From the IMG/VR virus record IMGVR_UViG_3300042013_000103: a stretch of DNA of 64,000 bases; one strand, given 5' to 3'. Positions 7,859 to 26,319 of the stretch are shown one piece after another. Made by a program: the position numbers and the translations under genes. How positions within the stretch are numbered: the first letter of the stretch is position 1; the number at the start of each line of letters is the position of its first letter. This DNA is from a virus (Duplodnaviria > Caudoviricetes). The notes under the pieces are model-generated. The model made no database searches, had not been told where the DNA came from, and saw only the letters and a program-made list of their open reading frames with translations.

Positions 7859-7868
7859 GGAGTGCCTC

Positions 7869-8849
7869 TTAGGTGCGTGTGAAGGTCATGGAAACGGAAT
7901 TCAATGGATTGGCCACCCTTAAGTTCGAAGGGGGTTGTGCCGCATCGACAATGGCCACGGATTGAATGTTGATCTTCGGGGTATCTGTGTCGGTAACCCG
8001 GAACAGCGTTGGCGAATACACCACGTCCACGAAGGAGCCTGTCACGGACAGTGGACCCGCATTACCCGTGTATTCGGAATAGAGACGGTACGGGTTAAAT
8101 GCGTTAGCGTCACTGTCCAGCAATTCCAGCACGGGGCGCCACCCGGTGTCGGTGGAGATCACTGTGGCCTTCGCCCCCACTGCCGTGGTGCCGTTAGTGC
8201 TTCGGGTTAACGTTTGTAAGGTATTGGCCGACGACGATTCTTTGCACAGGGTATTGAGGGCAGGTGCCGCCCCGAGGGCCGTGATGGCCCATTGTTCAAA
8301 TACCCCCATGTTGGGCAGTCCCGCCGAGTTGATCAACCGGTAGAGCAGGTCGTTGTACTCGTTCCCGGTGGCCAACTTCAAGGCGTTGAGATCACCTGGT
8401 GCGAACGGGTCTGCCGTGGCGCCTTGGAGGGTACGGATGCTCATTTTCCAAGGCACATCGTACCCGGCCTCGGGTTTGATCATGACCTTCCATTGGCTGG
8501 TCGCGTTACTGGGCATGGGGTAAGTGCCGTTGCCTTTCACGCCGTACACACCGCCCGCCAAGTATAAATCGTTCCAGGTCAGGTTGTAACGCCAAACCTT
8601 TTCGGCAATGAACAAATACTTACCTTGGTAAACAAACTTCAACCAGTTGTTGTTGGTTTCGTTCAACACCGTACCCGCGGACAGACTCAAGGCAGTGCTC
8701 ACTTCCCAACCCTGGAACAGTTCGGCGCCGGTGACAATGCCAAACCACCCGATGGTGGCATCCCCCGCTTTCAGAACTTTCGTGCCCGGTCCAGAATTAG
8801 GGAAGTACATCTGTCCCTGATTCCCGGAAGATAGGAGCAATTCGTTCAT
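7869..8849 (-). CDS. virion structural protein, paralog 1 of 4 (no FN3-like N-domain; has a C-terminal extension)
   Basis: Start MNELLLSSG at 8849 after GGAG. GPGTKVLKAGDATIGWFG, WLKFVYQGKYLF, LTWNDLYLAGGVYG, WRPVLEL. Confidence 0.8.
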   Translation of the reverse strand: MNELLLSSGNQGQMYFPNSGPGTKVLKAGDATIGWFGIVTGAELFQGWEVSTALSLSAGTVLNETNNNWLKFVYQGKYLFIAEKVWRYNLTWNDLYLAGGVYGVKGNGTYPMPSNATSQWKVMIKPEAGYDVPWKMSIRTLQGATADPFAPGDLNALKLATGNEYNDLLYRLINSAGLPNMGVFEQWAITALGAAPALNTLCKESSSANTLQTLTRSTNGTTAVGAKATVISTDTGWRPVLELLDSDANAFNPYRLYSEYTGNAGPLSVTGSFVDVVYSPTLFRVTDTDTPKINIQSVAIVDAAQPPSNLRVANPLNSVSMTFTRT

Positions 8850-8894
8850 GGTGAAACTCCTGCTGTAGAATATCAAAACATAGTATTGACGGGA

Positions 8895-8924
8895 CATAAA
8901 GCCTCCCCGGGGGGAGGCGCATGG
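8895..8924 (-). terminator. hairpin terminator of the CATAAAG family
   Basis: CATAAAGCCTCCC-CGGG-GGGAGGC immediately after the 216-aa gene stop. Confidence 0.65.
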
Positions 8925-8925
8925 T

Positions 8926-9576
8926 TTACAAGGTAAACAGTTCTGCTGGCGGTACGGGGAGTTCTTCGATTGTGGTGGCTGCAGCCACGGCATCTTTAAA
9001 CACCCAGATAACCCGGTAACCGGCAGTCACGGCTTGGAACGCCGCGGTGGCCATGGTCACCATTTCCGCAGCGGTCAGGGAAACGCTGACGTTCTCATAG
9101 ACGCGGAACTCCACCGGGAACTCCACCGCCGCGTCCACGGCTTCCTTGGCCAGCATCCGCAGGGTGCTGATGTTCTGGCAATCCTTGTCCCGGATTTGAA
9201 CGTGGTAAACGTTCTCGCCGAACTGGTAAGGGAACCCTTGTTCAAAACGGTTGTCCCGCAACGTCTCTGCGTCGACCAGCAACTGGGCTTTCTTACTGAC
9301 CAGGTTGGCCGCTAATTCGGTTTCCGTAAACGGTCGGGCGAGCCACGTGCGGTAATAGCTACCGTCGCGCAGTTCGGGCACACCTTCCACCACAACGTCG
9401 CCCTGCGGCACGTCGGTGTCCAAGACTTCTTCGTAGCCCCATTCCAACAGGTCCGCCGCTTCCATGCGGGTGGGGAATTGGGCGTTGGGCAATCGTTCGC
9501 TCAACGCCGATAGGAACAACGGATACGTGCCCGTGGCCGTTTCAATAAGGCGGGTAGTGCGGGTGATGGTTGACAT
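8926..9576 (-). CDS. tail fibre assembly chaperone (DUF4376-like)
   Basis: WR..DN..V.LTAAEM-type pattern (FRVYENVSVSLTAAEMVTMA...KDAVAAATTIEEL); directly downstream of the long fibre gene. Confidence 0.7.
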   Translation of the reverse strand: MSTITRTTRLIETATGTYPLFLSALSERLPNAQFPTRMEAADLLEWGYEEVLDTDVPQGDVVVEGVPELRDGSYYRTWLARPFTETELAANLVSKKAQLLVDAETLRDNRFEQGFPYQFGENVYHVQIRDKDCQNISTLRMLAKEAVDAAVEFPVEFRVYENVSVSLTAAEMVTMATAAFQAVTAGYRVIWVFKDAVAAATTIEELPVPPAELFTL

Positions 9577-9636
9577 TAAAGAAAACCTCCTTATACAAAA
9601 TAGACAGCGCCCGGGTGGACGCTATCGCTATACGGC

Positions 9637-12600
9637 TTAGGCCTGTGTGGTTACCGCGCCTTGCGACGCAATCCAGATTTCCCCGTCCCACAGGAGGGTG
9701 ACCACAGTCTTCACACCAGTCAAGGCCGGTGGGGCACCAGCGTTCCACCGGATAGTGTTCCCGGCGGCGTTGCTGTAGCTCACCACACCCACAGTCCCTT
9801 TGATCACCAGTGTGATCACCATGGCCCGAGTGGCTCCGGGGTTGTTGATGATGGAGATGTCTTTCGCCGCGGACCCACTGTTGTCCAACGTGACCACTTG
9901 TTGCGTGGCGGCATCGATAATCACGGTAGCGGAAACCGCACGGATCGGCAGGCTATAGTTGTCGAACGACACCCACGCCAAGTTCTTCCGGACGTATTGT
10001 TTACCGTCGTTCGGAGCATCCACGATCCCAGCGGCCGGGGCCACGTACTGCACCCAGGTGTGGTCGCCTTTACGCAGGTACAGGTTGGCATCGGTAGGAA
10101 CGTCCGTGAATTCCACCCAGGTCGTATTTTGCCCACTGCGCAAGAAGGTTTTCCCAGCGGTGGTGGGGGCTTCTGGTACGCCCGCGGCAGGGATGACAAT
10201 CTCGGTCCACTTAGGTGCACCTTCGCCGGTGACCCAGTTCCGTGCATAGAGTTTGTCCTTGATCGCGATGTCCACAATACCCGGGCTGGCTTCCACCCAC
10301 GTACCAATCGCTTGCCCCACGGTCCGTACGCGAACGTACTGTTTGCCGTCATCGAGGGGTTCGTCGATCTGAGTGGGGAAGTCAATCACCACCCATTCGG
10401 TTTCGGTGGTGCTACCGTCCTTGCGACGACGCACATAGAACACGTCGGCTACCGGTGCGGTCACTTCATCAACCGGAAGGGCGACCCATTCGTTACCCAA
10501 ACGGACAACCTTGCCCAGACCCACCAACGGCGAGTTCACATCACCGGCCACCAAACGACCGACCTGCACCCAACCCGTACCTTCGACTTTGTAGAACGTA
10601 TCGAAGGTCTCGTTGACTGCCCAGTCGCCATCCACGCCGTACTGTGGCGTAGGTTCGTTCACGCCTTCCGGCAGCACCAACCACAGCGACCCACGTTCAC
10701 CTTTCTCACCGGTGTTACCTTTGAGACCGGTCAGGCCACGGATGCCTTGTTCACCTTGCGGACCCCGTACAGGACCTGCGTTGAACCACTCGGTGGCGCC
10801 GCCTACCGGGTTAACCCCGTAGAGGTACAGGTCACTGCCCACCAAATACCCCTCACCCGCGTTCCCGGTTGGGTGGGCGGCAATGAGCGCCGCTTCGGTC
10901 AGGTACGACCCCATAATGGTGATCGAAGTACCGGCAGCACCGGTTAAGCCAATCGGCCCTTCTTCACCCATCGGTCCGGTGATGTCCACACCCGGAGCGT
11001 ATACACCCGCTTCGGTCCGGACGTACATCAGTTTGGTGTCAGCGGTGAAATACGCGTCGCCGGTTTCCAAGGTCCCTGGGTTAGGCAATGCGGCCAGGTC
11101 GTCAACCGTGCCTTTGATGTTGATGCCATTGCCTTTTGGTCCGATGCCACCCACATCACCCGTTAACCCGGTGTCGCCTTTGAATTGACCGAGGTCAACC
11201 CAAGCCCCCGTGATCCACATGTACAGGTGCCCGGTGTCCAGCAGGGTGTACGCGTCCTGTTCGGCAGCCCCGACCGGGAGGGCGGCGAGGTTAGCAACCG
11301 CCCCTTTGATCTGAACGTTCGCCCCGTTGGTACCGTCCAGCGAAGCAACCCAAGCCGCCTCGGTCCCAACAAACCCGGCGTCCAACGCACTTTGATAAGC
11401 CGACTTACCGTCGGTGCCACGGAACGGACCTGCATCCACCCACGCATCGGTCACGTAAATGTAGAGATGACCGTTTTCCAATGCCACCCAAGCGTCTTGG
11501 TCCACACCCGGGAGGGCTTGGATTTCGGCGATGGTGGGTTTGGTGCCCTTGACCTGCAGGTTGGTGCCATCCGTACCGTTGGTCCCGTCGGTGCCATTGA
11601 GGGACAACAGCCATGCCGCTTCTGTGCCGACAAAACCACCCGCTACCGCGATTTGATAAGCGGAGTTCCCGTCGACGCCATCCGTACCGTTCAACGAATC
11701 CAACCACTGTTGCACAGTGCCCACGAACCCTTCGGTCACCGCGACTTGGTACGCCGATGGGCCGTTCAACGTGCCGATGTTCAAATAATCGGCCGTGTCG
11801 GTCAGCCAGACGTAAACACTCTGACCCACAATGTACGCATCGGTAGCCGTACCTGGACGGGGCAATGCGCCTTCATTGGCCACAGTGCCCACGATTTCGA
11901 AAGCCGGTACAGGATCGCCTTTATCGCCGGTATCACCCTTCGCGCCTTTCAGCGACAGGATCCACTGAGCTTCCGTGCCTACGAAACCGCCGTCGATGGC
12001 AATCTGGTAAGCGGACTTACCCGTGTCGCCGGTATCACCTCGGTCCCCCTGAATGGAGTCCAACCATTGTTGCTGGTTGCCCACGAACCCTGCATCGACC
12101 GCGATCTGGTAAGCAGACTTCCCTGGGAGCGACGCGATCCATTGCGCTTCGGTTCCGACGAACCCAGAATCGACAGCCGACTGGTACGCGGACTTACCGA
12201 CGGGACCCGGTACGCCGATGGACACCCATTCGCGCTCAGGAGCTTCTACCAAGGTCCACAGGTCATTGTTCCAGACGTAGGTATCACCCGCCACATAACC
12301 GACCCCCAGTGGCAACGGAACGCCGTTAGGCCACGTGCCCAAATAATTCAGGCCTTGGCCCGCTGGGCCAGTCAGGTCATTGGAAATCACCCAATCGGTG
12401 CCGTTGAAAATATTGAGGGTGGTGCCGACGATGTATGCATCGCCTTTAACAGCTTCGCCGTCCAAAACAATCTGGTCGTACTGTTCTTGTGAAACGGTGC
12501 CGATGACTGTGATGCCACTGCCTTGCAGGGATGCCAACCACTGAGCCTGAGTGCCGACGTAACCGCCGATGACCGCTAGGTCGTACGCAGACTTACCATC

Positions 12601-13671
12601 GTCGCCAGTCAGGCCGTCCTCGCCTTGCAGGGACGCTACCCACGCGGCTTCATCCCCTACGAAACCCAAATCCGTGGCGATCTGGTAAGCCGACTTGCCC
12701 ACCAATGTCGCCAACCACGCCGCTTCGCTCGGCAACGCTGGGTTCTCGAGTTTGGCCACGTCATACGCCGACAGACCCGGGAGACCGTCATCACCGTTGA
12801 GGCCATTATCACCCGTGAGTCCGGTGTCGCCTTTGAGGGAAGTGATCCACTGGGCTTCAGTGCCCACGAACCCCAACTCCACGGCCAGTTGATAGGCTGT
12901 TTTGCCTTCGAGCGACGTCAGCCATTGCTGCACCGTACCGCCGAAACCGGCATCGACTGCCACTTGGTAAGCCGTTTTACCTTTCAGGGTACCCAGCCAC
13001 TGGGCTTCAGTACCCACGTAGCCACCGTCCACTGCGGACTGATAAGCCGATTTGCCGTCTGGACCCACCAGGGTAAGCAACCATTCTCCAATGGTTCCAA
13101 CAAAGCCGTTTAACACAGCGTCGTCGTATGCGCTCAGACCAATCGGACCGATGTCCCCTTGATCGCCGTCTTCACCCTTATCACCCGTGGGGCCTTTTAA
13201 CGACGCCAACCATTGGGTGATGGTCCCTACATAACCCTCGGAAACTGCCAGTTCATAGGCGGTTTTGCCGATCAGCGAAGCAATCCACTGCGCTTCGGTC
13301 CCCACGTAGCCGCTCGACAGAGCAGACTCGTACGCCGATTTGCCGTTGTCGCCATCGTCACCTTTTACACCGACCAACGAAGCCAACCAGTCTGGCAGAG
13401 TACCGACAAAACCCAGTTCTTTAGCGAGGGTGTAAGCATCCTTGCCTGCCAAGCTGGTCAGCCATTGCTGAACGGTGCCGACGTAGCCGTTGTCAACAGC
13501 AACTTCGTACGCGGACTTACCCTCGTTATTGCGGATCTTAGAAACGAGCAGACGATAATTTTTAAAGGAACCGTCTTCCTCGCGTTTGATGACCTCAAGC
13601 ATCTCCTCACCGGTGATGGTGTTCAGTGGAGTCATATTAGAAATCATGCCTGGGTTTTCAGTATCTGCCAT
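9637..13671 (-). CDS. long collagen-like repeat tail fibre (1344 aa)
   Basis: 17 G(K/L/P/N)(S/T/D)AY..A...G(F/Y).GT...W..SL repeats, Gly-X-Y runs, 8 small beta nodes, 6 DAP.DGK.YVR-type repeats and a C-terminal LLWDGEIW domain. Confidence 0.85.
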   Translation of the reverse strand: MADTENPGMISNMTPLNTITGEEMLEVIKREEDGSFKNYRLLVSKIRNNEGKSAYEVAVDNGYVGTVQQWLTSLAGKDAYTLAKELGFVGTLPDWLASLVGVKGDDGDNGKSAYESALSSGYVGTEAQWIASLIGKTAYELAVSEGYVGTITQWLASLKGPTGDKGEDGDQGDIGPIGLSAYDDAVLNGFVGTIGEWLLTLVGPDGKSAYQSAVDGGYVGTEAQWLGTLKGKTAYQVAVDAGFGGTVQQWLTSLEGKTAYQLAVELGFVGTEAQWITSLKGDTGLTGDNGLNGDDGLPGLSAYDVAKLENPALPSEAAWLATLVGKSAYQIATDLGFVGDEAAWVASLQGEDGLTGDDGKSAYDLAVIGGYVGTQAQWLASLQGSGITVIGTVSQEQYDQIVLDGEAVKGDAYIVGTTLNIFNGTDWVISNDLTGPAGQGLNYLGTWPNGVPLPLGVGYVAGDTYVWNNDLWTLVEAPEREWVSIGVPGPVGKSAYQSAVDSGFVGTEAQWIASLPGKSAYQIAVDAGFVGNQQQWLDSIQGDRGDTGDTGKSAYQIAIDGGFVGTEAQWILSLKGAKGDTGDKGDPVPAFEIVGTVANEGALPRPGTATDAYIVGQSVYVWLTDTADYLNIGTLNGPSAYQVAVTEGFVGTVQQWLDSLNGTDGVDGNSAYQIAVAGGFVGTEAAWLLSLNGTDGTNGTDGTNLQVKGTKPTIAEIQALPGVDQDAWVALENGHLYIYVTDAWVDAGPFRGTDGKSAYQSALDAGFVGTEAAWVASLDGTNGANVQIKGAVANLAALPVGAAEQDAYTLLDTGHLYMWITGAWVDLGQFKGDTGLTGDVGGIGPKGNGINIKGTVDDLAALPNPGTLETGDAYFTADTKLMYVRTEAGVYAPGVDITGPMGEEGPIGLTGAAGTSITIMGSYLTEAALIAAHPTGNAGEGYLVGSDLYLYGVNPVGGATEWFNAGPVRGPQGEQGIRGLTGLKGNTGEKGERGSLWLVLPEGVNEPTPQYGVDGDWAVNETFDTFYKVEGTGWVQVGRLVAGDVNSPLVGLGKVVRLGNEWVALPVDEVTAPVADVFYVRRRKDGSTTETEWVVIDFPTQIDEPLDDGKQYVRVRTVGQAIGTWVEASPGIVDIAIKDKLYARNWVTGEGAPKWTEIVIPAAGVPEAPTTAGKTFLRSGQNTTWVEFTDVPTDANLYLRKGDHTWVQYVAPAAGIVDAPNDGKQYVRKNLAWVSFDNYSLPIRAVSATVIIDAATQQVVTLDNSGSAAKDISIINNPGATRAMVITLVIKGTVGVVSYSNAAGNTIRWNAGAPPALTGVKTVVTLLWDGEIWIASQGAVTTQA
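11335..13525 (-). repeat. in-frame ~25-aa SAY...GFVGT...WL repeats (17 copies) interleaved with Gly-X-Y tracts
   Basis: Counted by eye in the translation. Confidence 0.85.
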
Positions 13672-13806: not shown

Positions 13807-14661
13807 TCACGGTGCGATGGTGCTCGCGGCGATGGTCCATGTACCATTACCTGCACGCACGGCACCCAGCTTCTCGGTCAAGAAGTCATGGAGTTGTTTT
13901 GCCGTCACGTACTTGGCGTCGTCAATGCCGAGGTCGATGTCGCCATCCACCCCCTTGACCACAGTGGAATCCGCGTTGACGTGCACATACGCTCCAGCCA
14001 CTTTCAGGTAGAGGCCTTCGGTGTCCAGGGTGTAGTAGAACGTATCCGCCAATGCGTCACCCACCACGGGCAATGCCGCAAAGTTTGCCACTTCAATGGT
14101 GACCTTACGAGCAGCGATCAGAGCGTCCACCGCGGCTTCGTCCAGACCGCTGACCAGTTTACCGCCGGCAGTCACGCCGTCGTGAATGTAAACCAGTTTC
14201 AACAGTTCGTCGTAGGAGAAACTTCCGACCGGGCCGACGTAGGTGGCGCTTTCAGCAGTGTCCAGTTGAACGACCGAGCGGTCCACGACTTTCCAAGAGC
14301 CGATACCTTCCACATCCGCAGTGAAGACCTTACCTGCGTTCGCGACGTCAGCTACGTACAGCCCGCGGAACAGTTCGGTCCATTGGGCTTCGGTGCCGAT
14401 AAACAGACCGGAATCCACGGCCAATTGGAAAGCCGACTTACCGGGCAAGGTGGCCACCCATTCCGCTTCCGTGCCCACGAACCCAGTGGCTACAGCCGAG
14501 TCATACGCAGAGGCCCCGGTGCGCAGCTTGTTGGAAAGAATCCGGTAGTTCTTGAACGTGCCATCGGCGGTGCGTTTCACCACCTCGACGTATTCGTCAC
14601 CGGCCAGCGATTGCAGCAGAGAAAACCCCGACAACATGTTCGGGTTGGTTAAGCTGGGCAT
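13807..14661 (-). CDS. short fibre/adaptor protein with the class-C N-terminus and an Mtd_N-like motif
   Basis: N-terminus is homologous to the 1344- and 1177-aa proteins. Has 2 SAY repeats, YVGPVGSFSYDELLKLVYIHDGVTAGG (Mtd N-terminal-like) and one beta node; no enzyme domain. Confidence 0.75.
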   Translation of the reverse strand: MPSLTNPNMLSGFSLLQSLAGDEYVEVVKRTADGTFKNYRILSNKLRTGASAYDSAVATGFVGTEAEWVATLPGKSAFQLAVDSGLFIGTEAQWTELFRGLYVADVANAGKVFTADVEGIGSWKVVDRSVVQLDTAESATYVGPVGSFSYDELLKLVYIHDGVTAGGKLVSGLDEAAVDALIAARKVTIEVANFAALPVVGDALADTFYYTLDTEGLYLKVAGAYVHVNADSTVVKGVDGDIDLGIDDAKYVTAKQLHDFLTEKLGAVRAGNGTWTIAASTIAP

Positions 14662-14706: not shown

Positions 14707-16536
14707 TCACACGGCTGGTGAAACGTGACTCTGTCTCAGGTAGGCCCAGTCGGTGCCGATCACACCTCCGGACCCGGTGGTTAACCGCTTGTGCCCGGTG
14801 AGCAGCATGGAGTTGGCGTCGAGGACCCCGTCCGTGCGTTCCACCAAGTCCCCTTGGGTAAAGGAACCGGCGTTGCCTGGCAGCGCATCCGACACCAGCT
14901 TGATCCGGCTACCGACGAAACGAATGAAACTGCCCATGCTGTTGATGGTGTTCATGGGACCGGCCGCGCGCGTTAGCCACAACACACCATTGACCGCATT
15001 GCCGTTGTCAAACATGAACGTGCTGCCCAGCGAATGGATGTCCACGTAGTGCGTGTACGTCCCGGCGACCGTGCCACGGTAGAGGCGAATGATCCCGTTG
15101 CGAGGAGACGTTGCAAACCCCACGTTGAGTACGTTCATCTTGTCCGCTTCGGCGACCAAGCTGGTTTCGGCGTTGACTGGGTTACGGCCCAAGGCACGTC
15201 CTGCGTCGTACAGCACCTGCACGTTGTAGTAGTAAGTGCCCACCGCCACTTTCCATTGGTTCACCCCAGTGCCGCGTACGCCCACTGCTTCCACTCGTGC
15301 CGAGGCAATGCCTTGGAACGTCGCATCGGCCATCCGTACACCGTGATCCAACGAGACAATGTTTGGAATGTCCACCACGCTTTTACGCGAGGTCAGGTAG
15401 GAGTAATTGTTGAAGCTCGGTACGGGGGTGATACCGTCCGCTTGGCAGATACGAATACCCGCCTGTTGATCACGCTGGAAGTCACCACGCACGGTCCACT
15501 GCTGCACTGCGTTGTCCACGATCAAGGACACCGAGTCCCCTTGCTGCACATGGAACCCCGACCAGTCCATGAGGTCTTCCACGTTCCGGAACCGGGTGTT
15601 CTGGAGCTTGACGGTAAACCGGGATTCGTTTGACGCCGAGGCAAAGGTCCCTTGGGTGATGATCGGGATGCGAGTGTCCGGCAAAAACTGACTGTCCACG
15701 GTTACGTCGGACGAATCGTAAATGTGCTGGGCGCGTTCGAAGTGCCCACCCACCAAGTTAATGTTGCCACACAGCTCGATCAAGTAATCACCGCCGATGC
15801 AACCTTCCACCGTCCCACCTTGGACGCCCCGCAACCGCATGGCTTTCATCGATTGCGCAGTGGCCACGGTGTACGGGCAGTGGATGTTCTTGGCGATGAA
15901 ACCGTCACCCAGCCCTAGGATGTCGAACTGGTAGGACAAGTTTCCCTGGGGGTTCTCGGCGATGATGTCACTCAGGTGGAAACTGTCCGTGTAGAAACCA
16001 GTCGGCCGCATGATGCTCTGGGTCAGGCCGTTGAACTTCAACTGTTCGAACTTCCCGGAACCGAAGCACTTGATTCCCTTGGCCGGGTTGACGCCATTGG
16101 GGTTGGTGAAGTTGCAGCGACTGAACCCACCGGTGTTCATGTTCGGGTAGGGGGTGGTCCAGGTGATCCCGTCCGCAGTGTTGATCATGAACATGCAACC
16201 ATCCACAAACGTACCGGTGTCCAGATGGAAGAACGACACATTGCGGGATTCACAGTCCACCCAGAAACCCGCAGGCAGGAAAACCGTGGACTCTACACCG
16301 TAGTTACCAGCGGGCACAAAGACCCCACGTTTTCCAGCGGCCACTGCCCGCGCAAAGGCCGGTTGCCAATTCTCCCCATCTGCAGGGCGCCAGAAGTCCA
16401 CCAAGCTGGGAGATTCATCCAGGCGATCCGCGATGGAACGGTTACCGTAGTTAATTTCACGTGCACCCTCCGGACCTAACAAGGCCAAGAGGTTGGGCAC
16501 ATACTTTGCCAACTTTGCTAATACGCCGAGAGCCAT
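14707..16536 (-). CDS. tailspike/depolymerase, predicted pectin-lyase-like beta-helix (class-B N-terminus)
   Basis: Start MALGVLAKLAK at 16536. The junction motif RSIADRLDESPSLVDFW...NWQPAFARAVAAG..GVFVPAG.Y precedes N/G/F/I-rich beta-helix coils. Confidence 0.8.
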   Translation of the reverse strand: MALGVLAKLAKYVPNLLALLGPEGAREINYGNRSIADRLDESPSLVDFWRPADGENWQPAFARAVAAGKRGVFVPAGNYGVESTVFLPAGFWVDCESRNVSFFHLDTGTFVDGCMFMINTADGITWTTPYPNMNTGGFSRCNFTNPNGVNPAKGIKCFGSGKFEQLKFNGLTQSIMRPTGFYTDSFHLSDIIAENPQGNLSYQFDILGLGDGFIAKNIHCPYTVATAQSMKAMRLRGVQGGTVEGCIGGDYLIELCGNINLVGGHFERAQHIYDSSDVTVDSQFLPDTRIPIITQGTFASASNESRFTVKLQNTRFRNVEDLMDWSGFHVQQGDSVSLIVDNAVQQWTVRGDFQRDQQAGIRICQADGITPVPSFNNYSYLTSRKSVVDIPNIVSLDHGVRMADATFQGIASARVEAVGVRGTGVNQWKVAVGTYYYNVQVLYDAGRALGRNPVNAETSLVAEADKMNVLNVGFATSPRNGIIRLYRGTVAGTYTHYVDIHSLGSTFMFDNGNAVNGVLWLTRAAGPMNTINSMGSFIRFVGSRIKLVSDALPGNAGSFTQGDLVERTDGVLDANSMLLTGHKRLTTGSGGVIGTDWAYLRQSHVSPAV

Positions 16537-16549
16537 ATATCCACCTTGT

Positions 16550-18295
16550 CTATGTTTGTGTACCCACAATGGTACCGTCTGTATCGCTGGTTGGAGCGCC
16601 ACTCTTTATACGTAGTCGTCCAAGAGCATCCACCCAGAGATAGTAGCCCCCTAATTTCAGAGGCTCAGGCCCATTGTAGGACGATGTAAAAGCCACAGCA
16701 CCAGTCAGGCATCTGATACCAACCCAATCCGTCCCAGCCACGTGGGTACTGCCTGTAGTCAAGCGACGCCAGCCTAGGGTAGTATACGGCGTACCATTGT
16801 TGACCAGTGCAGGTGATTCATTCAGCACCATATCGCCTTGAGTATAACTCCCCGTATTTGGGAACGTACTACCCCAACCAACATGACGGGTGGACAACAT
16901 CACACGTAACCATTGTGCTTGTGGTGATAACCAGACCTGGTCGAACTGACCATCTGTATTGCCTAAGTTCAGTTCTTTACGGAACAGTAAGTTCTTCCCG
17001 TAATAACCTGGTTTATTAGCATAGACCGATGACCAGGCACCTTCGCCGACTTCGTGAATACCCGGATCGATAGCTGAGAAACTATCACGCGTGTATGGAT
17101 CATCAATCAGTGTAGTATAGACATTGTTATTGGCAATACGTCCAGATGACTGATTGCTTGAAATGCCCGTAACTTTAAAACCAATACTGTTATCGATGGT
17201 GTAGTAACCTGATTCAGATACATTGTTCAAACCGATATCAAAACCTTTTACTTGGTCGATTGCCCCATGAATCTGGGCATCTTTCATGTCGTTATTCTTG
17301 ATCTCAAGACCAGTGATTAATGCAACGTTAATATGTGTTGAACCTATGAAAGTGCCGTCAGGTTGCTTACCTGCGCTTTCGAAGTGGCAATTCTGTACCG
17401 CCAAGTTACGCATGTTGCTAGACACGTTAGACAATGAACCTAGGGTATTACTGCCAAAACTTACATGCTCGAACTGTACATTGTCACAGATGTTCCCATC
17501 GTGCAACAACACAGCACCTTTACCAGCCATCCGTTGAATCAAACCATTATGTACTTTCAAATTGGAGCTATTCCACTCATCGCCGGCCCCAGAATTTTTC
17601 GAACCATATACCAAGCCATACTGACCTTGTGGTAAGGTAGCGCCCCCCGAGATATTGAACTTCTCAAGGTCTACGTTAAAGTAGTTGCGGATCTCGATGA
17701 TACGAGATGCAGGGTTAGCAAATGAGTCACAGGAAATACCGTACAGCTGCACTCGGTTAACTCGGTCCAAATGAATGCCACCAATTGGAACAGCGCTGTT
17801 CTGTGCGGTTACTCGGAAATTACTTAACTCAAACTGGGTAATGGGCGTATTGTCTTCAGTGCCCAATCCCAGCACGCTGAGGAAATGGCCCGTACCTGTA
17901 TAGATGATGCGATTCCGGCGAGTATGATTACCAACGATGCTAACACCACGTTGGTCAGTGATCATTGTGTAATCGATGAATAATGGACCTGCGAAGGCTA
18001 CATTGTGGAACTCCCATGGGAGCTCGATGATAAAGCCATTTGCTGCAGCGGCGATCAATGCCTTTTGGAATTTATCTGTATTGATAATACCATTATTGGC
18101 TGAACTCACTCCAAAGCGTTTGATAGATACTCGTTCATCGAGAACTGTAGCAACATCGCCACCTTCTAGTCCTGTACCCGGATAGCTCGGAAAATACCCT
18201 AGGGTAGCTGCACCTTTCGTAGTATCAGTCTTATCCCCTAAGCCGAGTAACATTGGTACGTGCTTTGCCAACTTAGTTAAAACACCGATTGACAT
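16550..18295 (-). CDS. tailspike/depolymerase, predicted beta-helix (class-B N-terminus), AT-rich
   Basis: VATVLDERVSIKRFG...NTDKFQKAL junction, beta-helix coils, and the common tailspike C-terminus GGYYLWVDALGRLRIKSGAPTSDTDG. Confidence 0.8.
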   Translation of the reverse strand: MSIGVLTKLAKHVPMLLGLGDKTDTTKGAATLGYFPSYPGTGLEGGDVATVLDERVSIKRFGVSSANNGIINTDKFQKALIAAAANGFIIELPWEFHNVAFAGPLFIDYTMITDQRGVSIVGNHTRRNRIIYTGTGHFLSVLGLGTEDNTPITQFELSNFRVTAQNSAVPIGGIHLDRVNRVQLYGISCDSFANPASRIIEIRNYFNVDLEKFNISGGATLPQGQYGLVYGSKNSGAGDEWNSSNLKVHNGLIQRMAGKGAVLLHDGNICDNVQFEHVSFGSNTLGSLSNVSSNMRNLAVQNCHFESAGKQPDGTFIGSTHINVALITGLEIKNNDMKDAQIHGAIDQVKGFDIGLNNVSESGYYTIDNSIGFKVTGISSNQSSGRIANNNVYTTLIDDPYTRDSFSAIDPGIHEVGEGAWSSVYANKPGYYGKNLLFRKELNLGNTDGQFDQVWLSPQAQWLRVMLSTRHVGWGSTFPNTGSYTQGDMVLNESPALVNNGTPYTTLGWRRLTTGSTHVAGTDWVGIRCLTGAVAFTSSYNGPEPLKLGGYYLWVDALGRLRIKSGAPTSDTDGTIVGTQT

Positions 18296-18296
18296 A

Positions 18297-18368
18297 GGTT
18301 CACCTCAAAATTTATCAGGGGGTTAGGGGAGGAACCTAGCCTCCCTTCCAGTTACACAACGGGCCCGA
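18297..18368 (-). repeat. imperfect ~70-bp direct repeat, copy 2 (relic gene end + hairpin + RBS)
   Basis: CGGGCCCGTTGTGTAACTGGAAGGGAGGCTAGGTTCCTCCCCTAACCCCCTGATAAATTTTGAGGT matches the copy at 18665-18730. Confidence 0.85.
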
Positions 18369-18391
18369 AACCCCTTAATGTGCGCTAGCCC

Positions 18392-18664
18392 TCATGGCTT
18401 AGGGTACCTGTCCTTGACAGACTGAACCAAAAGCCGCATGTCGTCCGCTTCGGTACCGCCTTTCCACAACGCATCCAGTTGATCCCGGATCGGAGGATAC
18501 GCGGCATAGCGCAACGCTTCGTAATCCGACGCCAGCACCACCGAACCTTTAACAGTAGTGGCCACTTCCACGTCCGCCTCCACCGCGCCTTCTGGCAGTC
18601 TCTCGGTGACCTCCCAATCCCCCACGCACAGCAGTTTCCCGTCCAGCAAATATACCTTAGCCAT
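18392..18664 (-). CDS. small tail fibre/spike assembly chaperone
   Basis: YEALRYAAYPPIRDQLDALWK...VKDRYPKP pattern typical of small fibre chaperones. Confidence 0.7.
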   Translation of the reverse strand: MAKVYLLDGKLLCVGDWEVTERLPEGAVEADVEVATTVKGSVVLASDYEALRYAAYPPIRDQLDALWKGGTEADDMRLLVQSVKDRYPKP

Positions 18665-18730
18665 AACTACCTCAAAATTTATCAGGGTTAGGGGAGATCT
18701 AGCCTCCCCCTCAGGTTACACAATGACCCG
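18665..18730 (-). repeat. imperfect ~70-bp direct repeat, copy 1
   Basis: CGGGTCATTGTGTAACCTGAGGGGGAGGCTAGATCTCCCCTAACCCTGATAAATTTTGAGGT, which includes the last codons of the upstream spike gene. Confidence 0.85.
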
Positions 18731-21052
18731 GACACTGTAACGCTCAAGCGTCATTATATCGGTGCCCACCGCCAACTGACCAGTGATGGTCACCGAAGCT
18801 GTCTGAGCCGTGTCAATGGCCGAGGTGTACGGTGCGTTAGCGTTAGTACCCCCTTGCGCTTGGTTGCTTGCCGCTTCACCCAGTTGACTATTGGCGACCC
18901 CACGGTTTTGCAGTTTCTTGACAAACGCCGCCGAGGCAGTCGCAGTAGCGGTGGTCGAGAAGAAGGCACCTCCTCCCAACCGATAACGCATTGTCTTGGT
19001 GTTTGCGCTGTTGCTGTAGCTGAACACCGCCTCCACTTCGAGGATGCCATTAAGGCCCATCAGGCCAGGCGGGATCGCCACGGTGACGAACGTGTACTCC
19101 GTGGTGATCGTACCCGGGTGTGGTCGTGCTACCGCGCTGGTTTCCAGCACGATGGTCTTGGGCTCCGCACCGTAACTGCGTGCCAACTCGACCCACACCG
19201 CACCGTCAAACTGGAGGGTCAGTGTTGCCTTCGCATTCTTTGGCGTAAAATCACGTCCATCCTGCAAATAGATGCTGCCGTTACTGGCAATGGTGGTCAG
19301 GTTGTTGGAGAACGAAAGCCGCAGGACTTGTTTGGTCTTACCCCCCAGGATGTTGGTCACCGTCAATGGAGTCTGGTTGTTGAAGTTCATGTTATCGATC
19401 GAGTCTGACGCCCACGCACCACCCATGGAAATGCTTGGCGTGGTTTGACCCGCGTTGCTGAGGTAACCCCCGGCTGCATAGCGGGAGAACTGTTCGATCG
19501 CCGCATCGTTGAACTGCACCAAGGGATTCTGGTTAAATACCGCATCAGTGCATTCGAACTTTTGAATAGCAGGGGCCGGACCGTACGAACAGAAACCCGT
19601 ACCGGAGGTAGCGCCGTAGGTGCGAACCGTACGGATCAACGGACGGATAATGTGCAGGTTGGTCACCAGTTCCGCGTTATACGCCAGACCGTTGCCCATT
19701 GTGTTGAAGGTCATCCCCTCGATGGTGATGCAGTCACCGTCCTGGATGTGAATGGCGTAGCTGTCGTAAGACCCATCTTCAACCAAACCAGATCCAGTGA
19801 TGTAGTTCTGCGAGAACTTAACATTGCGCACTATATCCGTAGATAACAGACCTGGTTCATATTCACGGCTAATTTTGATGGCGTTTCTCTGACAGCCTTC
19901 AAATTGCTGTCCGATAGAAGCGAAAGAAATAACGCCGCCATCCAACCACAAACCATGTTGGTCAGCCAGCGAGGTTTGCCCGCCAATGAAGACCAGTGGA
20001 CCAAACGTCCCTTGTACGGCTCCGCGGCGACCAATACGAATACCATAACCCATTTTGTAACAATCGACGTTGGTGTAACACTTCATGTTCGTCTGACCAA
20101 ACGTCCCGTCGGTGGTGATATCCAGGCCGACCCCTGTCCACGTGCCGTCACCCGTTGCACCGCCACGGATCAATCCGTTGATGTGTGTGGTTTCCCAGGT
20201 GGTCGACTCGACGATGCCATTACCCGCAGGGTTCTGCACTTTAACCGTGTAGTTCTGCAGGAAAATGCTGCCCTGGGACCCCTGCAGGCGCAGAACGTCC
20301 GAAGTCGATGTACCACCCACGAGGTTGAAGTTCATCAGAGAGAAGTAACCGCCCATGCCGGACGGGTTCTCAATGGAGAACAACCCCTTGAGTTCCACCA
20401 GTGGGGTGGTTGACCCATTGACGTGGACAAAAGCCGTACCGGGTTCTTCCAGTGCCCCTGTCGCGTGGCCGTTGCCGTGGCCTAAAATACTGACACGGCC
20501 GGAACGACCTGGCCAATTAGGGTTGAGCGCCGCATCGTAATACAAACGCAGGGTATCGGTTAAGTACTTACGACCAGCCATAGGGCGCAGGATCGAACCT
20601 TTGCGGTTGCAGAAACACAAGGCCGCCTGCAAGGCTGTGGTATTCACCGTCCCTTGCTTAGTGTCCCAGCTATAGTTGCCCACCGCCCCGAAATATTCCG
20701 GGCGCACTTCATCCGTCAACACCCGCTTCCAGCGACCCGCCCCCGCGTTACCCGGTGGATTGACCACCATGCATCCGTCGTGGACTTCGTTACTGTTACC
20801 CTCCCAGTACCAATCCCCTTCACCCCCGTCGCCGACGGTGTAGAAACCACCGACGTAAACGACCACGGTCCGTCCTGCTGCCACCACCGGAATCGGCAAT
20901 AACAAGAGGGACGCCATGTTCATCAAGGAAACCTTGGCCGAGGCCAGGTTGACCCCAGACGGACTCCCGATTTCCCCAGCCCCGTCGCTGGTACTCAACT
21001 TAAACAGGTTGGGGGCTATTTTTGCTAACTTAGTGAGCAGACCGACGCCCAT
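18716..21052 (-). CDS. tailspike/depolymerase, predicted beta-helix plus C-terminal beta-sandwich domains (class-B N-terminus)
   Basis: Start MGVGLLTKLAK after GGAGG. GFYTVGDGGEGDWYW...DGCMVVNP...GRWKR...PEYFGAVG is a typical tailspike head motif. Confidence 0.8.
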   Translation of the reverse strand: MGVGLLTKLAKIAPNLFKLSTSDGAGEIGSPSGVNLASAKVSLMNMASLLLLPIPVVAAGRTVVVYVGGFYTVGDGGEGDWYWEGNSNEVHDGCMVVNPPGNAGAGRWKRVLTDEVRPEYFGAVGNYSWDTKQGTVNTTALQAALCFCNRKGSILRPMAGRKYLTDTLRLYYDAALNPNWPGRSGRVSILGHGNGHATGALEEPGTAFVHVNGSTTPLVELKGLFSIENPSGMGGYFSLMNFNLVGGTSTSDVLRLQGSQGSIFLQNYTVKVQNPAGNGIVESTTWETTHINGLIRGGATGDGTWTGVGLDITTDGTFGQTNMKCYTNVDCYKMGYGIRIGRRGAVQGTFGPLVFIGGQTSLADQHGLWLDGGVISFASIGQQFEGCQRNAIKISREYEPGLLSTDIVRNVKFSQNYITGSGLVEDGSYDSYAIHIQDGDCITIEGMTFNTMGNGLAYNAELVTNLHIIRPLIRTVRTYGATSGTGFCSYGPAPAIQKFECTDAVFNQNPLVQFNDAAIEQFSRYAAGGYLSNAGQTTPSISMGGAWASDSIDNMNFNNQTPLTVTNILGGKTKQVLRLSFSNNLTTIASNGSIYLQDGRDFTPKNAKATLTLQFDGAVWVELARSYGAEPKTIVLETSAVARPHPGTITTEYTFVTVAIPPGLMGLNGILEVEAVFSYSNSANTKTMRYRLGGGAFFSTTATATASAAFVKKLQNRGVANSQLGEAASNQAQGGTNANAPYTSAIDTAQTASVTITGQLAVGTDIMTLERYSVRVIV

Positions 21053-21135: not shown

Positions 21136-23631
21136 TCACATTACGTGCAGGTCACCTAAGGTGCTCGTGAAAAAGTTCCACGTGGCGTCCGGGTTAGTCG
21201 AGCCGATGGGCGTGGCCTTCAATTGATTGCTGTTGTCGATCGACCACGTGAATGACGGGAATGTAGGGCCCCCGCCCGTCAGCAACCCTGCTGCGCTCAC
21301 CTGAACCAACTGCGGCGCTAATGTGGTTGCTCCTTTGGCCACCTGAAGGATGTAGTGCGCGGTCTCTGAAGCATTCGCATCCACTTGTTTCACGGTGATA
21401 AATAGAACACCCGAGAAATTCGTAGCTGTCCCGTCCTGTGATACACATGTACCCACCACGTTACCGGACGTCGTCAGGTTCTTGGAAATCGTCTGAGCGG
21501 CGCTGTCGATCCGCTTCGACGAGTAGTCCCGTTTCATGGTGCTATTCTCGTCATGATTCCCGACACCGATGACAAAGTCGAAAGGGATACCGTTCGGCAC
21601 GTTGACCGTGTTGTAGCGGGCCCGCGCTCCTTTCGATCCTTCCGAGTCAGCAGAAATGGATATTCCGAGTACGTTCGCTACCCCTGACTTCACATAACAG
21701 CCTTCAACCAAGGCTTTGCCTTTATGTACCCGAACACCATACCCGTTGAACTGAAGGCACGTTACATCACGGATTTCCACATCCGGGAGCAGTTCAAGCC
21801 CCCCTGTAGGGGAGATGTCCCCAGTGGCGTCGGAGACGTTATTTAAAAAAGCACTGGTTACCATGACGCCAGCATTCTTGCTGCCGATGGCCGAGCAGTC
21901 TGAAATGACTGAGTTCTGCGCACCATACACAGAGAACGAGTGCGAACCAGAGGTCAGATTTCGTTCCACCACGTCCACATTACTGACGGTGATTTGTTCG
22001 TGATACCCGCCGGATGCTGCCGCAATGATCACAACCCCAGTCGCCGATCCAGCGACCGGCACATCGCCAACATTAATGGTGGATGGAAGCACTTTGATGT
22101 TTCTGGCGATGCCGCACTTGTAAAGACGGTGCGTGCCAGAAAAAGCACCAATAACCTTGGAGATGCCAGCCAGCGCATCCTCTTGGGTCTCGGCGAGTTT
22201 GATGGTGTCAGCATCAATCACGATGGCAAAATAGTAGTTAGCCCTACCAAAGCCACTGATAGCCGTATTGTTCTGCCGGGAGTAAATCAGCGGATAACCA
22301 GTGGTCAGTCCATGAGCTGTGAGAGTGAGTGCATCAGCGGCCGAGGTGGTGAAATCCCATTTACCTAAGGTGTAAGGTTCAATGCCCAGTACTTCCCGCA
22401 TGGTGTCTCTTGAAAACACCTGCATGCTTCCGTTATCAACGTTGCCATATTGCAGTGCAAAGTTCCCGCCCTTTTCACACACCAGCTTAGAGAAGCAGTT
22501 GGTCGAAGGTCGATTGTACGGGTAGAACGCACTCACCCCTAACGCGCCGCCCAGTGCCGTACCATCCGAAATGATCTTAAGATCAATAAAAAGTCCGTCT
22601 ACGTTATCAATCAAAATGCCATGTTCCGCGTGAGTGCCAATCCTCGCGATGGTGAATCCCTTAAGAACGATGTTGCTTAGGCGCCCCCCAGTAAACGGGC
22701 TGGCTATGAACAATTTTCCTGAAGATGAGAACTTACAATGGATTTCTGGGGAGTAACTATCATCGCCCAAAATGTCCATGGAGGACCATGCGCGGATAGT
22801 TTCGGTGATTAGATATTTCTTGTTCTTACCCAGCAGTATTGGAACCCCAGCCGCTTTAGCGAGAAGGAACGCGCCAGTGCAGTCTGTACCGGTTTGAGTG
22901 ACCGGATCATAGTCGCCAACAGCACCGAACAGCTCGATTGGTCGCCGAACGCCAGCAAGAACCGAATAGACCGTGGCTGGCGTTCCACCCTCTAACGGGA
23001 ACCCTACTTCCTCCGCTCCATTTGGTGACGTCAGGGTTTGACGCAGGGTGATGTCTTCGGCTTGTATCAACTTACCTTGGTCTGTTGCCCACGTGCCGGT
23101 AGTAAAGGGCAGGGCGGCGCGCACGGGACGGTAGTTGACATCCAGATACCGCACCACTTGGGTGGACCGCACCAGTTCGATGCCGGCAGAATAGGGAACT
23201 TCAGCTTCCAGCCCCAGCGACTCCAGGTAAGACAGATAGTCTTGAGTGCGTTTCTCTTTCTCGGCATCAAACAACGTGTCCAGTTGTTCGAACAGGTGAT
23301 CGTAGCGCGCATTCGTGATGACACGCATTTGCTGCCCATCGGCGTAGATTTCCGGGGTCACCAAGGTAAACTTGTGCATGGTGTCCACGGTAAAAGCGTA
23401 TTCAATCGCACCCTCCACCCACAATACCATTCCCGCAGTGGTGACCGAGGGGTCACCCGAGATGACACCGACGTCGTACTGGGTTTGACCCTGCACGAAG
23501 GTAAATGGGTAGGCGGCATTGACCTTGAGCTTGGCGGTGGCGACGGTTAGGACGTCACTGGCCATTTGGGTGAGTTCGGCGGTGCTAGCGGCAAGCTCGG
23601 TGATTTCCTGCGCCAGTTGTTCATAGGACAT
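21136..23631 (-). CDS. tailspike/depolymerase, predicted beta-helix (class-A N-terminus)
   Basis: MSYEQLAQ; DITLRQTL...GAEEVGF...IELFGAVGD...DCTGAF junction followed by beta-helix coils. Confidence 0.8.
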   Translation of the reverse strand: MSYEQLAQEITELAASTAELTQMASDVLTVATAKLKVNAAYPFTFVQGQTQYDVGVISGDPSVTTAGMVLWVEGAIEYAFTVDTMHKFTLVTPEIYADGQQMRVITNARYDHLFEQLDTLFDAEKEKRTQDYLSYLESLGLEAEVPYSAGIELVRSTQVVRYLDVNYRPVRAALPFTTGTWATDQGKLIQAEDITLRQTLTSPNGAEEVGFPLEGGTPATVYSVLAGVRRPIELFGAVGDYDPVTQTGTDCTGAFLLAKAAGVPILLGKNKKYLITETIRAWSSMDILGDDSYSPEIHCKFSSSGKLFIASPFTGGRLSNIVLKGFTIARIGTHAEHGILIDNVDGLFIDLKIISDGTALGGALGVSAFYPYNRPSTNCFSKLVCEKGGNFALQYGNVDNGSMQVFSRDTMREVLGIEPYTLGKWDFTTSAADALTLTAHGLTTGYPLIYSRQNNTAISGFGRANYYFAIVIDADTIKLAETQEDALAGISKVIGAFSGTHRLYKCGIARNIKVLPSTINVGDVPVAGSATGVVIIAAASGGYHEQITVSNVDVVERNLTSGSHSFSVYGAQNSVISDCSAIGSKNAGVMVTSAFLNNVSDATGDISPTGGLELLPDVEIRDVTCLQFNGYGVRVHKGKALVEGCYVKSGVANVLGISISADSEGSKGARARYNTVNVPNGIPFDFVIGVGNHDENSTMKRDYSSKRIDSAAQTISKNLTTSGNVVGTCVSQDGTATNFSGVLFITVKQVDANASETAHYILQVAKGATTLAPQLVQVSAAGLLTGGGPTFPSFTWSIDNSNQLKATPIGSTNPDATWNFFTSTLGDLHVM

Positions 23632-23685: not shown

Positions 23686-26319
23686 TTAACAAGCAAGCCA
23701 GAGCGCGCCGTCCCACACCAGGTTCAAGGCGGTTTGTGCTGCGATCGCCCGACTGGCTGTGAGGTTAGTGGTGCCCCCCGCGGGCATGGTCAGCACCGCC
23801 GTCCCGGCATTGATGATAGTCATGCGTTGCCCGGCGTGTTTACCGCCGTCCGGCGTAGCCAGGGTGTAGGGCCCGCCCGAGAGTTTCAGGGTGATGTCAC
23901 CGTACAAGGTACCGGTCGCAACGAATTGTCCTGATGCGGTCAACACTCGTGCGATGAAGTTGCTGGTGGTGCCGAGTTGACTGTTGATGTACCGGTAGGC
24001 AATCGAGGTCTGGCCACTCTTGGTCCCTTCGGTATGCCGATCCACTTCCACTTTACGGAAGGTGACCTTAAACGCATCATCAATCAACTGCCCTTCACAG
24101 ATTGCCTGTGAGGTTACCTCAGCCGGTGCCCCGATGATGCGCATATCGGCGATGTCAATGTCGGTGAACGCACTGGTGATCGACCAGCACCGCACGTTGG
24201 TCAAGGTTGGACTGACCTGCGACAAGTCAAAGGTAACAGTCCCGGTTGCGCGGCCACGACCGAACGCCAAGCCTTTGGAGTAATCCCCAGCCTCAGGTGG
24301 CATGATAAAGGTAGGGTTTTCCAGGATCAAATGATCGATCCACAACAGGTTCGATTGAGTGATAGAACTAAACTTACCACCTTTAATGGTCACCTTGTCG
24401 ATGGTACGGCCCGCAGCCCCTGAGTTGATGACCGCTTGTGAGGTCACTCCTCGTGCTTCGCAGTTGATCAACGTTACGTTGCTCGTCTCGTTGGCGTAGG
24501 TGGAAATGAACGAGAACCCCACCCGCGTTTGAGCCGCAATACAACCGTTGAACACGCCATTACGCCCGCGCATTTGGAAACCGGCACCACTGCTTTGTGG
24601 ACCCCGAACCCCTGCATGCGCCGTGCAGTTGTGGAACTCAATGGAATCCGCCAGTTCGTGCGCATCAAACGGAGCGTTGGTGCAACCCATGCCAGTGCAG
24701 TCGCTGACTTTAGTAGCATAGGTCCGACCATAGCGGTGGGTGTCCGCACTGCCTGCGACTGGAACCCGGCTGGTGCCCGTGGTGTAGCCGTGACGACAAC
24801 CCATGAAGTGGGACGCCGTGACCGCACCAAACGCACATGACTTGTCCGAGATGCCGTAGCCGTACCGAAATGTCGCTGGATCGTTGATCAACCGACGAAC
24901 CATGATCCCTTTGGCCTTGTAGCGGAAGATGCTCTGCAGGTTCATGAAAATGCCGTAACCAAATTCCGCGGTCAGGTTTTCAAACTCACAGTTCTGTCCG
25001 TTCACCACCTGCAACAGGTCGGTGTTCCAACCCGCTGCGTTCCCTGTGGCTAAGGTATCGAAGGTAAACCCATACAACCCGATCATGTCGTCAACTTGCC
25101 GACGTGCCCGTACATTGAGGGTGTAGGGATCGCGCAACAGGTGCGTGATGTACACGTCATTGCCCACCACAGCGCCCACGAAGCCAAACTCGCCGGCCCG
25201 TTGCTCAGTGTTGGCCGAACCGAACAACACGTCGTCCGCTACCACTTTGATCACATCGCCGGTGACCCACGTAGGCGTTGTCTCAAAGGACAACTTGGTG
25301 CAGCTGGTGGCCGCATCTTCGCCACTGAAGTCGTACGACGAGGGCTCGGTGGCCACCACCGGGATGATGTCGTCCAAACGACCTTTCAACGTAATGGTTG
25401 GGGCATTCGCAATCTGCAGAAACGTAACGTCACCGCCCGCGTACATCCGCAAGGCCCCGATCCGGGTCGCCCCAGAAGAACGGTAGATCCCTGGGGTGAA
25501 CAACAGTTCCTCGCCCAACGGAACGTCGGTGAACGCTTTGGCGATGGCCGGGGTCCAGTCCCAGGTGTTAGGGTCATTCGCGTCCGGACGGTCCACCACA
25601 GCATCCGAGAATTCCCAGATGTTGTACGGTTGTGCCGACAGCATTTTGCTGACGGTGCTCATGGCCGTGGCCAAGGAACTGCGGGAGAACCCTAAGACCT
25701 CGGATCCTTGGGCCGAATAAAGGAACTGACGCAAGGTGATATCTTCGGCCTGCACCAACTTACCCTGATCACCGGCCCAGGTCGTGGTAGTGAACGGCAA
25801 GGCTGTCCGCAACGGGCGGTAGTTCACTTCTTGGTACCGCACCACTTGGGTTGTCCGCACCAGGCTGATCCCAGCGGCGTAAGGCACCTCGGCCTCCAGG
25901 CCCATTGCCTCTAAGTAGTTCAGGTAATCCTGAGTGCGTTTGGTTTTCTCGACCGTGTACAGGTTGTCGAGTTGTTCAAACATGTGGTCATAGCGGGCGT
26001 TGACTATGATGCGCATCTGTTGGCCGTCAGCATACAGCTCCGGCGTCACCAGGGTAAACTTGTGCATGGTGTCAACAGTGAACGCGTATTCAATTGCGCC
26101 TTCAACCCACAGGGATAAGCCGACCGTAGTGACTGAGGGATCGCCAGAGATCACCCCGACGTCGTACTGGTCTTGTCCAGCCACGAAAGTGAACGGGTAG
26201 GAGGCGTTCACTTTGATCATGGCCGACGCCGCAGTCATGGTCGCTTTGGCTTGTTCGGTTAATTCATCATTACTGGTGGCCAGGTCCGTTACCGCCTGAG
26301 CCAATTGTGCGTACGACAT
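23686..26319 (-). CDS. tailspike/depolymerase, predicted beta-helix (class-A N-terminus)
   Basis: MSYAQLAQ; first ~200 aa nearly identical to the 831-aa spike; TWDWTPAI module; RH/GTS-containing coils; C-terminal LVWDGALW. Confidence 0.8.
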   Translation of the reverse strand: MSYAQLAQAVTDLATSNDELTEQAKATMTAASAMIKVNASYPFTFVAGQDQYDVGVISGDPSVTTVGLSLWVEGAIEYAFTVDTMHKFTLVTPELYADGQQMRIIVNARYDHMFEQLDNLYTVEKTKRTQDYLNYLEAMGLEAEVPYAAGISLVRTTQVVRYQEVNYRPLRTALPFTTTTWAGDQGKLVQAEDITLRQFLYSAQGSEVLGFSRSSLATAMSTVSKMLSAQPYNIWEFSDAVVDRPDANDPNTWDWTPAIAKAFTDVPLGEELLFTPGIYRSSGATRIGALRMYAGGDVTFLQIANAPTITLKGRLDDIIPVVATEPSSYDFSGEDAATSCTKLSFETTPTWVTGDVIKVVADDVLFGSANTEQRAGEFGFVGAVVGNDVYITHLLRDPYTLNVRARRQVDDMIGLYGFTFDTLATGNAAGWNTDLLQVVNGQNCEFENLTAEFGYGIFMNLQSIFRYKAKGIMVRRLINDPATFRYGYGISDKSCAFGAVTASHFMGCRHGYTTGTSRVPVAGSADTHRYGRTYATKVSDCTGMGCTNAPFDAHELADSIEFHNCTAHAGVRGPQSSGAGFQMRGRNGVFNGCIAAQTRVGFSFISTYANETSNVTLINCEARGVTSQAVINSGAAGRTIDKVTIKGGKFSSITQSNLLWIDHLILENPTFIMPPEAGDYSKGLAFGRGRATGTVTFDLSQVSPTLTNVRCWSITSAFTDIDIADMRIIGAPAEVTSQAICEGQLIDDAFKVTFRKVEVDRHTEGTKSGQTSIAYRYINSQLGTTSNFIARVLTASGQFVATGTLYGDITLKLSGGPYTLATPDGGKHAGQRMTIINAGTAVLTMPAGGTTNLTASRAIAAQTALNLVWDGALWLAC

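Follow-up and report, generated by a model that had tools for sequence, protein, structure and literature searches.

The window analyzed here, a 64,000-nucleotide stretch of the virus record IMGVR_UViG_3300042013_000103 (Duplodnaviria; Caudoviricetes), is part of an uncultivated jumbo phage of the nucleus-forming (phiKZ-like) type, whose own 984-amino-acid (aa) virion protein is 66% identical to PhiPA3 gp148. Its receptor-binding genes lie in a row on the minus strand at ~9.6-35 kb, and three consecutive ones encode spikes of 609, 581 and 778 aa that open with a common peptide, M-x-[ILV]-G-x-L-[TA]-K-L-A-K-x-[VA]-P-x-L. An initial annotation of the window had proposed that this peptide is a docking tag of ~20 aa grafted onto newly captured enzymes, and the results below support that proposal. 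The peptide was found at residue 1 of approximately 38 proteins with unrelated bodies, and in all 15 contexts with enough flank, which span four phage backbones, the spike encoded next upstream carried one conserved module. We conclude that the ~20-aa N-terminus is probably a docking tag that plugs secondary spikes onto the module of the primary spikes (hubs) encoded just upstream. The genes and parts concerned are as follows.

14707..16536, minus strand: tagged secondary spike, 609 aa (P0001), from the open reading frame (ORF) and its translation; tag at codons 1-20, 16477-16536.
16550..18295, minus strand: tagged secondary spike, 581 aa (P0002), AT-rich, from ORF and translation; tag at 18236-18295.
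18716..21052, minus strand: tagged secondary spike, 778 aa (P0003), from ORF and translation; tag at 20993-21052.
21136..23631, minus strand: primary ("class-A long") spike, 831 aa; candidate socket module at aa 36-200, 23032-23526, from alignment and tblastn.
23686..26319, minus strand: primary spike, 877 aa (P0006); candidate socket module at aa 36-200, 25720-26214.
25999-26208, minus strand: acidic beta-domain D1 of the 877-aa spike, aa 38-107, part of the candidate socket module.

The tags start at 16536, 18295 and 21052, and a strong Shine-Dalgarno (SD) sequence, AAGGTGG, GAGGTG or GGAGGTG, lies 5-8 nucleotides (nt) upstream of each. A six-frame regular-expression scan of the window found the peptide solely at these three N-termini. 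The ORFs and their N-termini agreed with the initial description. The 11-mer AAGTTRGCAAA, which had been reported from all three genes, indeed occurred three times in the window, each time within a tag, against 0.07 occurrences expected. The 581-aa gene was likewise confirmed to be AT-rich yet tagged, with a guanine-plus-cytosine (GC) content of 44.5% at 17001-18000 compared with ~55% elsewhere. A true start downstream of the tag, named beforehand as an outcome that would undo the proposal, was rejected: the 581-aa gene alone has an in-frame methionine, at residue 15, and codons 1-14 vary synonymously while their residues are conserved. Moreover, in relatives no start codon stands between the preceding stop and the ATG of the tag, and the alignment of all family members begins at M1. 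A signal peptide was ruled out by lysines within the hydrophobic stretch. Orthologous spikes with the peptide were found in close relatives of the window, namely the complete jumbo genomes G001 and G002 and a Logan contig, L001.

Sensitivity to so short a motif differed between searches. A word-based protein search with tag residues 1-40 returned a single orthologue, the method being too insensitive for a 20-aa motif, and degenerate DNA scans that demanded [AV]-P after KLAK were too narrow and at first pointed to a single clade. The remaining matches of the DNA scans were internal or out of frame and were taken as chance; among the candidates discarded were large Hint-domain-like proteins on metagenome or genome contigs (L016, L020 and L030) with a GATAKLAKLAPKLLKF stretch that fits the degenerate DNA pattern; as the stretch is internal and lacks a spike context, the resemblance was attributed to chance. 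A profile of 32-residue N-termini, run on 1.84 billion representative proteins, yielded 18 matches at E ≤ 0.001; in 17 of them profile position 1 fell on the first residue of the protein, with a span of residues 1-25/31. Across 21 aligned tags of this wider family M1, G4, K8, L9 and L16 were invariant and T7 and K11 nearly so. The tagged bodies varied in length and Pfam content and included an SGNH esterase and a protein of 134 aa.

The bodies of the three spikes in the window are unrelated as well; similarity among these paralogues stops at about residue 24, with no common N-terminal domain beyond it. The 609-aa spike has orthologues of 608/609 aa in L001, G001 and G002 and a body 30% identical to an Acinetobacter phage protein, and the body of the 778-aa spike is 49-51% identical to Klebsiella phage depolymerases. 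No Pfam family was matched by the three spikes or by the hub N-terminal region. Within the tagged genes, tblastn detected no match to the module, and no anchor domain of Pfam or PHROG was matched. We conclude that the three tagged spikes have no recognizable anchor or branching domain of their own.

To assess the pairing of tag and module, contexts with enough flank were collected from both directions: the window, seven contexts located by the tag and seven located by the module. In all seven tag-first contexts (G001, G002, G003, L043, L001, L049 and L050), the module was in the gene directly upstream, and in all seven module-first contexts (L032, L034, L036, L038, L046, L047 and L048), one or two tagged genes lay directly downstream; L045 and L051 were cut by contig ends. 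The backbones comprised jumbo relatives (L038, L045 and L048), N4-like phages (L034, L036 and L046), a phage with a P22-type portal (L047) and an integrase-bearing phage (L032). A further N4-like fragment, G003/L031, shares its sample series with the jumbo relatives, and its terminase has 82% identity to its counterpart in Pseudomonas phage CRC2. It encodes two tagged spikes and, directly upstream of them, a 793-aa spike whose first 50 residues match N4-like tail spikes and whose next ~170 residues are homologous to aa 36-200 of the 831- and 877-aa spikes of the window. Between backbones only the module and the tag persist; the anchors, the primary and secondary enzymes and the neighboring genes all differ. 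Such persistence is what one would expect of parts that have to match.

The module itself was found in 22 proteins, preceded by N-terminal regions of ~30, 85-120, 177 or 320 aa; these differing anchors belong to phiKZ-like phages, N4-like phages, the P22-type-portal phage and the integrase-bearing phage. An AlphaFold2 (AF2) model of the module built on a 21-row alignment reached a predicted local distance difference test (pLDDT) score of 77 and consists of a 70-residue beta domain (D1), a helix of ~30 residues and a second beta domain (D2) of ~50 residues; an earlier hub model from an 8-row alignment (pLDDT 50) was not used. D1 has a constant length, and no other part of the module is as well conserved. 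It is acidic in all 21 homologues, with a net charge of -2 to -7, and E73 is among its invariant acidic residues. When the model was compared with 48,161 structure chains, the top matches were the XD2 and XD3 domains of CBA120 TSP4, documented as gp10-like domains for docking (PMC8825819), and D2 resembled the head D2 domains of TSP1, TSP3 and gp63.1. Module matches in BFVD, with E values down to 7.5e-6, were spikes annotated "TSP1/Gp66 N-terminal domain." Foldseek of the model against PDB gave nothing at E ≤ 0.001, the hub profile gave nothing below E 0.37 against PDB sequences, and phmmer with the hub N-terminus gave no matches. Complex prediction with three copies of hub aa 1-215 and three of tag aa 1-40 returned an ipSAE (a score of predicted interfaces) of 0.00, which counts neither for nor against binding.

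Plug and socket is the most probable way in which tag and module fit together. The primary spike would attach to the virion through a backbone-specific anchor, which in the jumbo phage would be the ~30-aa MSYEQLA helix, and would present the module, situated between the anchor and its own enzyme, as a socket. Anchorless trimeric secondary spikes would then plug into the socket through the ~20-residue tag, such that the virion would bear a branched set of enzymes running from the anchor to the primary spike (831 or 877 aa) to the tagged secondary spikes. Acidic D1 would be the socket and would face lysines 8 and 11 of the tag, a putative parallel to the charge complementarity of CBA120 and G7C.

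The socket could instead lie elsewhere, in the second beta domain, in both domains (two sockets per hub), in the central helix or in another baseplate protein, an arrangement that would keep the docking tag and that we consider unlikely. The second domain is conserved too, with E142, R155, R168 and D184 invariant. Moreover, phages with a single hub carry up to two tagged spikes, as two sockets or competition for one would allow; the ratio of tagged spikes to hubs was 3:2 in the window and L001, 2:2 in G001, 2:1 in G002, G003, L038 and L048 and 1:1 elsewhere, never above 2:1, which fits either arrangement. The central helix, however, is the least conserved part of the module and varies in length among the 21 homologues, and no other gene is common to the four backbones. 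D1, in contrast, is not only the most conserved and uniformly acidic part but also the one whose model resembles known docking domains.

Several points weigh against docking of the tag on the module. Physical binding of the two, the role of D1 as the socket and the stoichiometry are what we infer from sequence and predicted structure. Tag-to-hub counts are not 1:1 and would fit more than one number and placement of sockets. All relatives are metagenomic. Finally, hub and tagged genes are always adjacent, and their co-occurrence could in part reflect transfer of a block.

That adjacency is also what one would see if the peptide were an intramolecular feature, either an N-terminal trimerizing cap or a signal for an assembly chaperone such as a 90-aa protein encoded between two of the spikes, with the module pairing due to block movement. 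The hydrophobic spacing of the tag fits a short coiled coil, and a small ORF like the 90-aa one adjoins these spikes in several lineages. Nonetheless, block linkage leaves unexplained why the contexts have different anchors, different primary and secondary enzyme bodies and different backbones; the 90-aa-type ORF is absent from L001, G001 and G002; and beta-helix spikes trimerize without such a cap. We therefore regard an intramolecular role as improbable.

The tag is amphipathic, with hydrophobic residues at positions 3, 6, 9/10, 13, 16 and 17 and lysines at 8 and 11. The initial annotation had described it as a cationic amphipathic helix with a proline kink, loosely like melittin-type peptides, and had offered a membrane-interacting role as the alternative to docking. 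The description holds for the three copies in the window, which have a net charge of +2 or +3, proline at position 14 and a hydrophobic moment of 0.30-0.48. It does not hold for the family, in which net charge ranges from -1 to +3, P14 occurs in 11 of 21 members and few of the further profile matches have proline. Charge and proline kink thus appear, by the aligned tags, to be local to the window copies, and the membrane alternative loses its basis. The invariant G4, K8, L9 and L16 form no charge pattern, the peptide is fused to the virion-facing end of a large trimeric enzyme, and its strict pairing with an upstream module would go unexplained. It is very improbable that the tag is a membrane-active peptide that acts on the host envelope or lipids during infection.

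Conservation of the tag had further been attributed to the DNA level, and the window 11-mer does encode K-L-A-K in identical codons. Across the 21 members, however, each invariant residue is encoded by 2 to 6 synonymous codons, with four codons at G4, a 12:9 split between the two at K8, four at L9 and six at L16. Because every synonymous codon occurs at invariant residues, the constraint acts on the protein. A nucleic-acid element, serving either cassette exchange by recombination or the initiation of translation, with the peptide incidental, might be suggested by the shared 11-mer, by the duplicated and conserved ~75-bp intergenic cassette nearby and by insertion of the 581-aa gene at a tag boundary, but it is hardly credible given that synonymous sites vary freely while amino acids are fixed, that between lineages the tags differ far more in DNA than in peptide sequence and that the intergenic cassette is the better source of recombination homology.

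Docking of short tags onto branched spikes has precedents. The design in which one receptor-binding protein (RBP) anchors and branches to others was modelled by Latka 2019 (PMC6872550) and is already known in Klebsiella podophages (PMC6872550, PMC13352976). In KP32, K11 and KP34, RBP2 is no longer incorporated once its 29-aa peptide has been deleted, and a foreign enzyme can be mounted by means of that peptide (PMC13352976); peptides of 7-11 aa serve as docking peptides in K1-5 and KP34 (PMC6872550). As in the window, the secondary depolymerase of the KP32, K11 and KP34 systems lacks an anchor and begins with a short peptide, of 7-29 aa; the primary RBP is composed of anchor, branching domain and enzyme; the genes are adjacent, with the primary one first; and the peptide is the sole conserved part of swappable enzymes. 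The heptapeptide consensus of the KP34 group, MALxxLV (PMC6872550), even has the hydrophobic spacing of the first seven tag residues, which is a resemblance only. Unlike the Klebsiella peptides, described as lacking positive charge, the tag has two conserved lysines; up to three tagged spikes are present for two hubs; and the pair occurs in a phiKZ-like jumbo myophage, N4-like phages and others.

The sequences of tag and module also set the pair apart from KP32, K11 and KP34. A tblastn search of 50,697 phage records with the tag, the hub N-terminal region and D1 gave no relevant match, and the second module domain alone was matched, weakly, at 29-38%. Megablast of the locus against the same number of phage records found no near DNA match, and no phage paper turned up when the literature was searched for the motif. 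Tag and module thus seem to form a new sequence family without detectable similarity to any deposited phage.

In the branched complexes of CBA120 (Kuttervirus; TSP1-4) and G7C (gp66/gp63.1), a primary spike with gp10-like XD2/XD3 beta-jellyroll domains recruits trimeric spikes; the docking socket there carries negative charge and the surface of its partner positive charge (PMC8825819), and the D1 model best matched XD2/XD3 of TSP4. The partners in CBA120 and G7C, however, dock by a folded head of ~100-160 aa instead of a 20-aa peptide, and where a hub there has two or three XD domains, the prediction here gives a single XD-like one. K1-5, K1E and SP6 provide another parallel, in that very short N-terminal peptides (a hepta- and an undecapeptide on two spikes) mount alternative enzymes on one socket protein, gp37, which has a gp10-like domain. 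Their socket is a separate adaptor without an enzyme, whereas the candidate socket here is part of an active spike. No such pair had been traced before for a phiKZ-like (nucleus-forming) jumbo phage. With ~20 residues and five invariant positions, the tag would be a compact docking element. Branched receptor-binding complexes set phage host range, and their plug-and-socket pairs are the handles by which phages are re-targeted; the variable ratio of tags to hubs raises the question of how several spikes share one socket.

Evidence for movement of tagged spikes came from the N4-like fragment. Residues 1-628 of the 778-aa spike, tag included, are 63% identical to a 631-aa spike of that fragment (L031 5372-7261), and the module of its adjacent hub is only 43% identical to that of the window by tblastn. 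Because spikes so similar stand beside modules so different, tags appear interchangeable across distant sockets. The comparison suggests that spikes move between phage families and were exchanged recently. It is conceivable, if doubtful, that a single plug-socket pair is exchanged among phiKZ-like, N4-like, P22-type-portal and integrase-bearing phages and that near-identical tags within one phage compete for sockets. If the pair is exchanged, a spike evolved on one type of virion could mount directly on another; if tags compete, particles of one burst would differ in their enzyme sets, a built-in bet-hedging of host range.

The locus also bears marks of gene gain. The 581-aa gene has an orthologue only in L001 (P0004, Pfam Cap_depo) and is absent from G001 and G002, which argues for a recent insertion. 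Its upstream junction equals the one preceding the 608/609-aa gene in G001 and G002; the gene was therefore inserted at a tag boundary. It stops 13 nt before the next start, and the SD sequence of the 609-aa gene, AAGGTGG, is placed right after its stop, between stop and ATG. Low GC, absence from G001 and G002 and close spacing point to recent acquisition and possible translational coupling. Two further features lie between the 581- and 778-aa genes.

18392..18664, minus strand: small 90-aa ORF (phrog_9114) between two tagged spikes; absent at this place in L001, G001 and G002.
18665-18735 (first copy) and 18296..18372 (second copy), minus strand: intergenic cassette of ~75 bp flanking the 90-aa ORF, comprising the 3' end of the 778-aa gene (a relic in the second copy), a GC-rich hairpin and a ribosome-binding site, from alignment with relatives.

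L001, G001 and G002 have a single copy of the cassette at the corresponding junction. As the window has two, the 90-aa ORF would have entered by duplication or recombination. Small ORFs resembling the 90-aa protein and ending in ...QLDAL...YPKP were noted at L049 10088-10399, L047 11084-11479 and L051 622-1002; judged by eye from translations, the similarity is clear for L049 only and looser for L047 and L051. An ORF of this type accompanies hub and tagged spikes in jumbo, N4-like and P22-portal phages, in varying positions and not always. The small protein may be an assembly factor.

Beyond the paired genes, the 877-aa spike was also found on a 307-kb metagenomic contig. As to the host, the backbones would point to Pseudomonas-type phages, and one enzyme body resembles Klebsiella depolymerases. 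Two more spikes of the window, at 26360-28210 (616 aa) and 28994-31018 (674 aa), start with an MSY(D/E)(Q/S)LA helix and lack the socket module. Because the MSYEQLA-type helix occurs on module-free spikes, helix and module are separable parts. On a related jumbo-phage contig, L045, three module-bearing spikes are in tandem at 7344-13557, and the contig ends before any tagged gene. Lastly, fibre-like proteins at 9637-13671 (1344 aa), 13807-14661 (284 aa) and 31066-34599 (1177 aa) share a third type of N-terminus, ..N.LSG...L.T.SG.EY.EV.KR.., which is also present in G001, G002 and L045.

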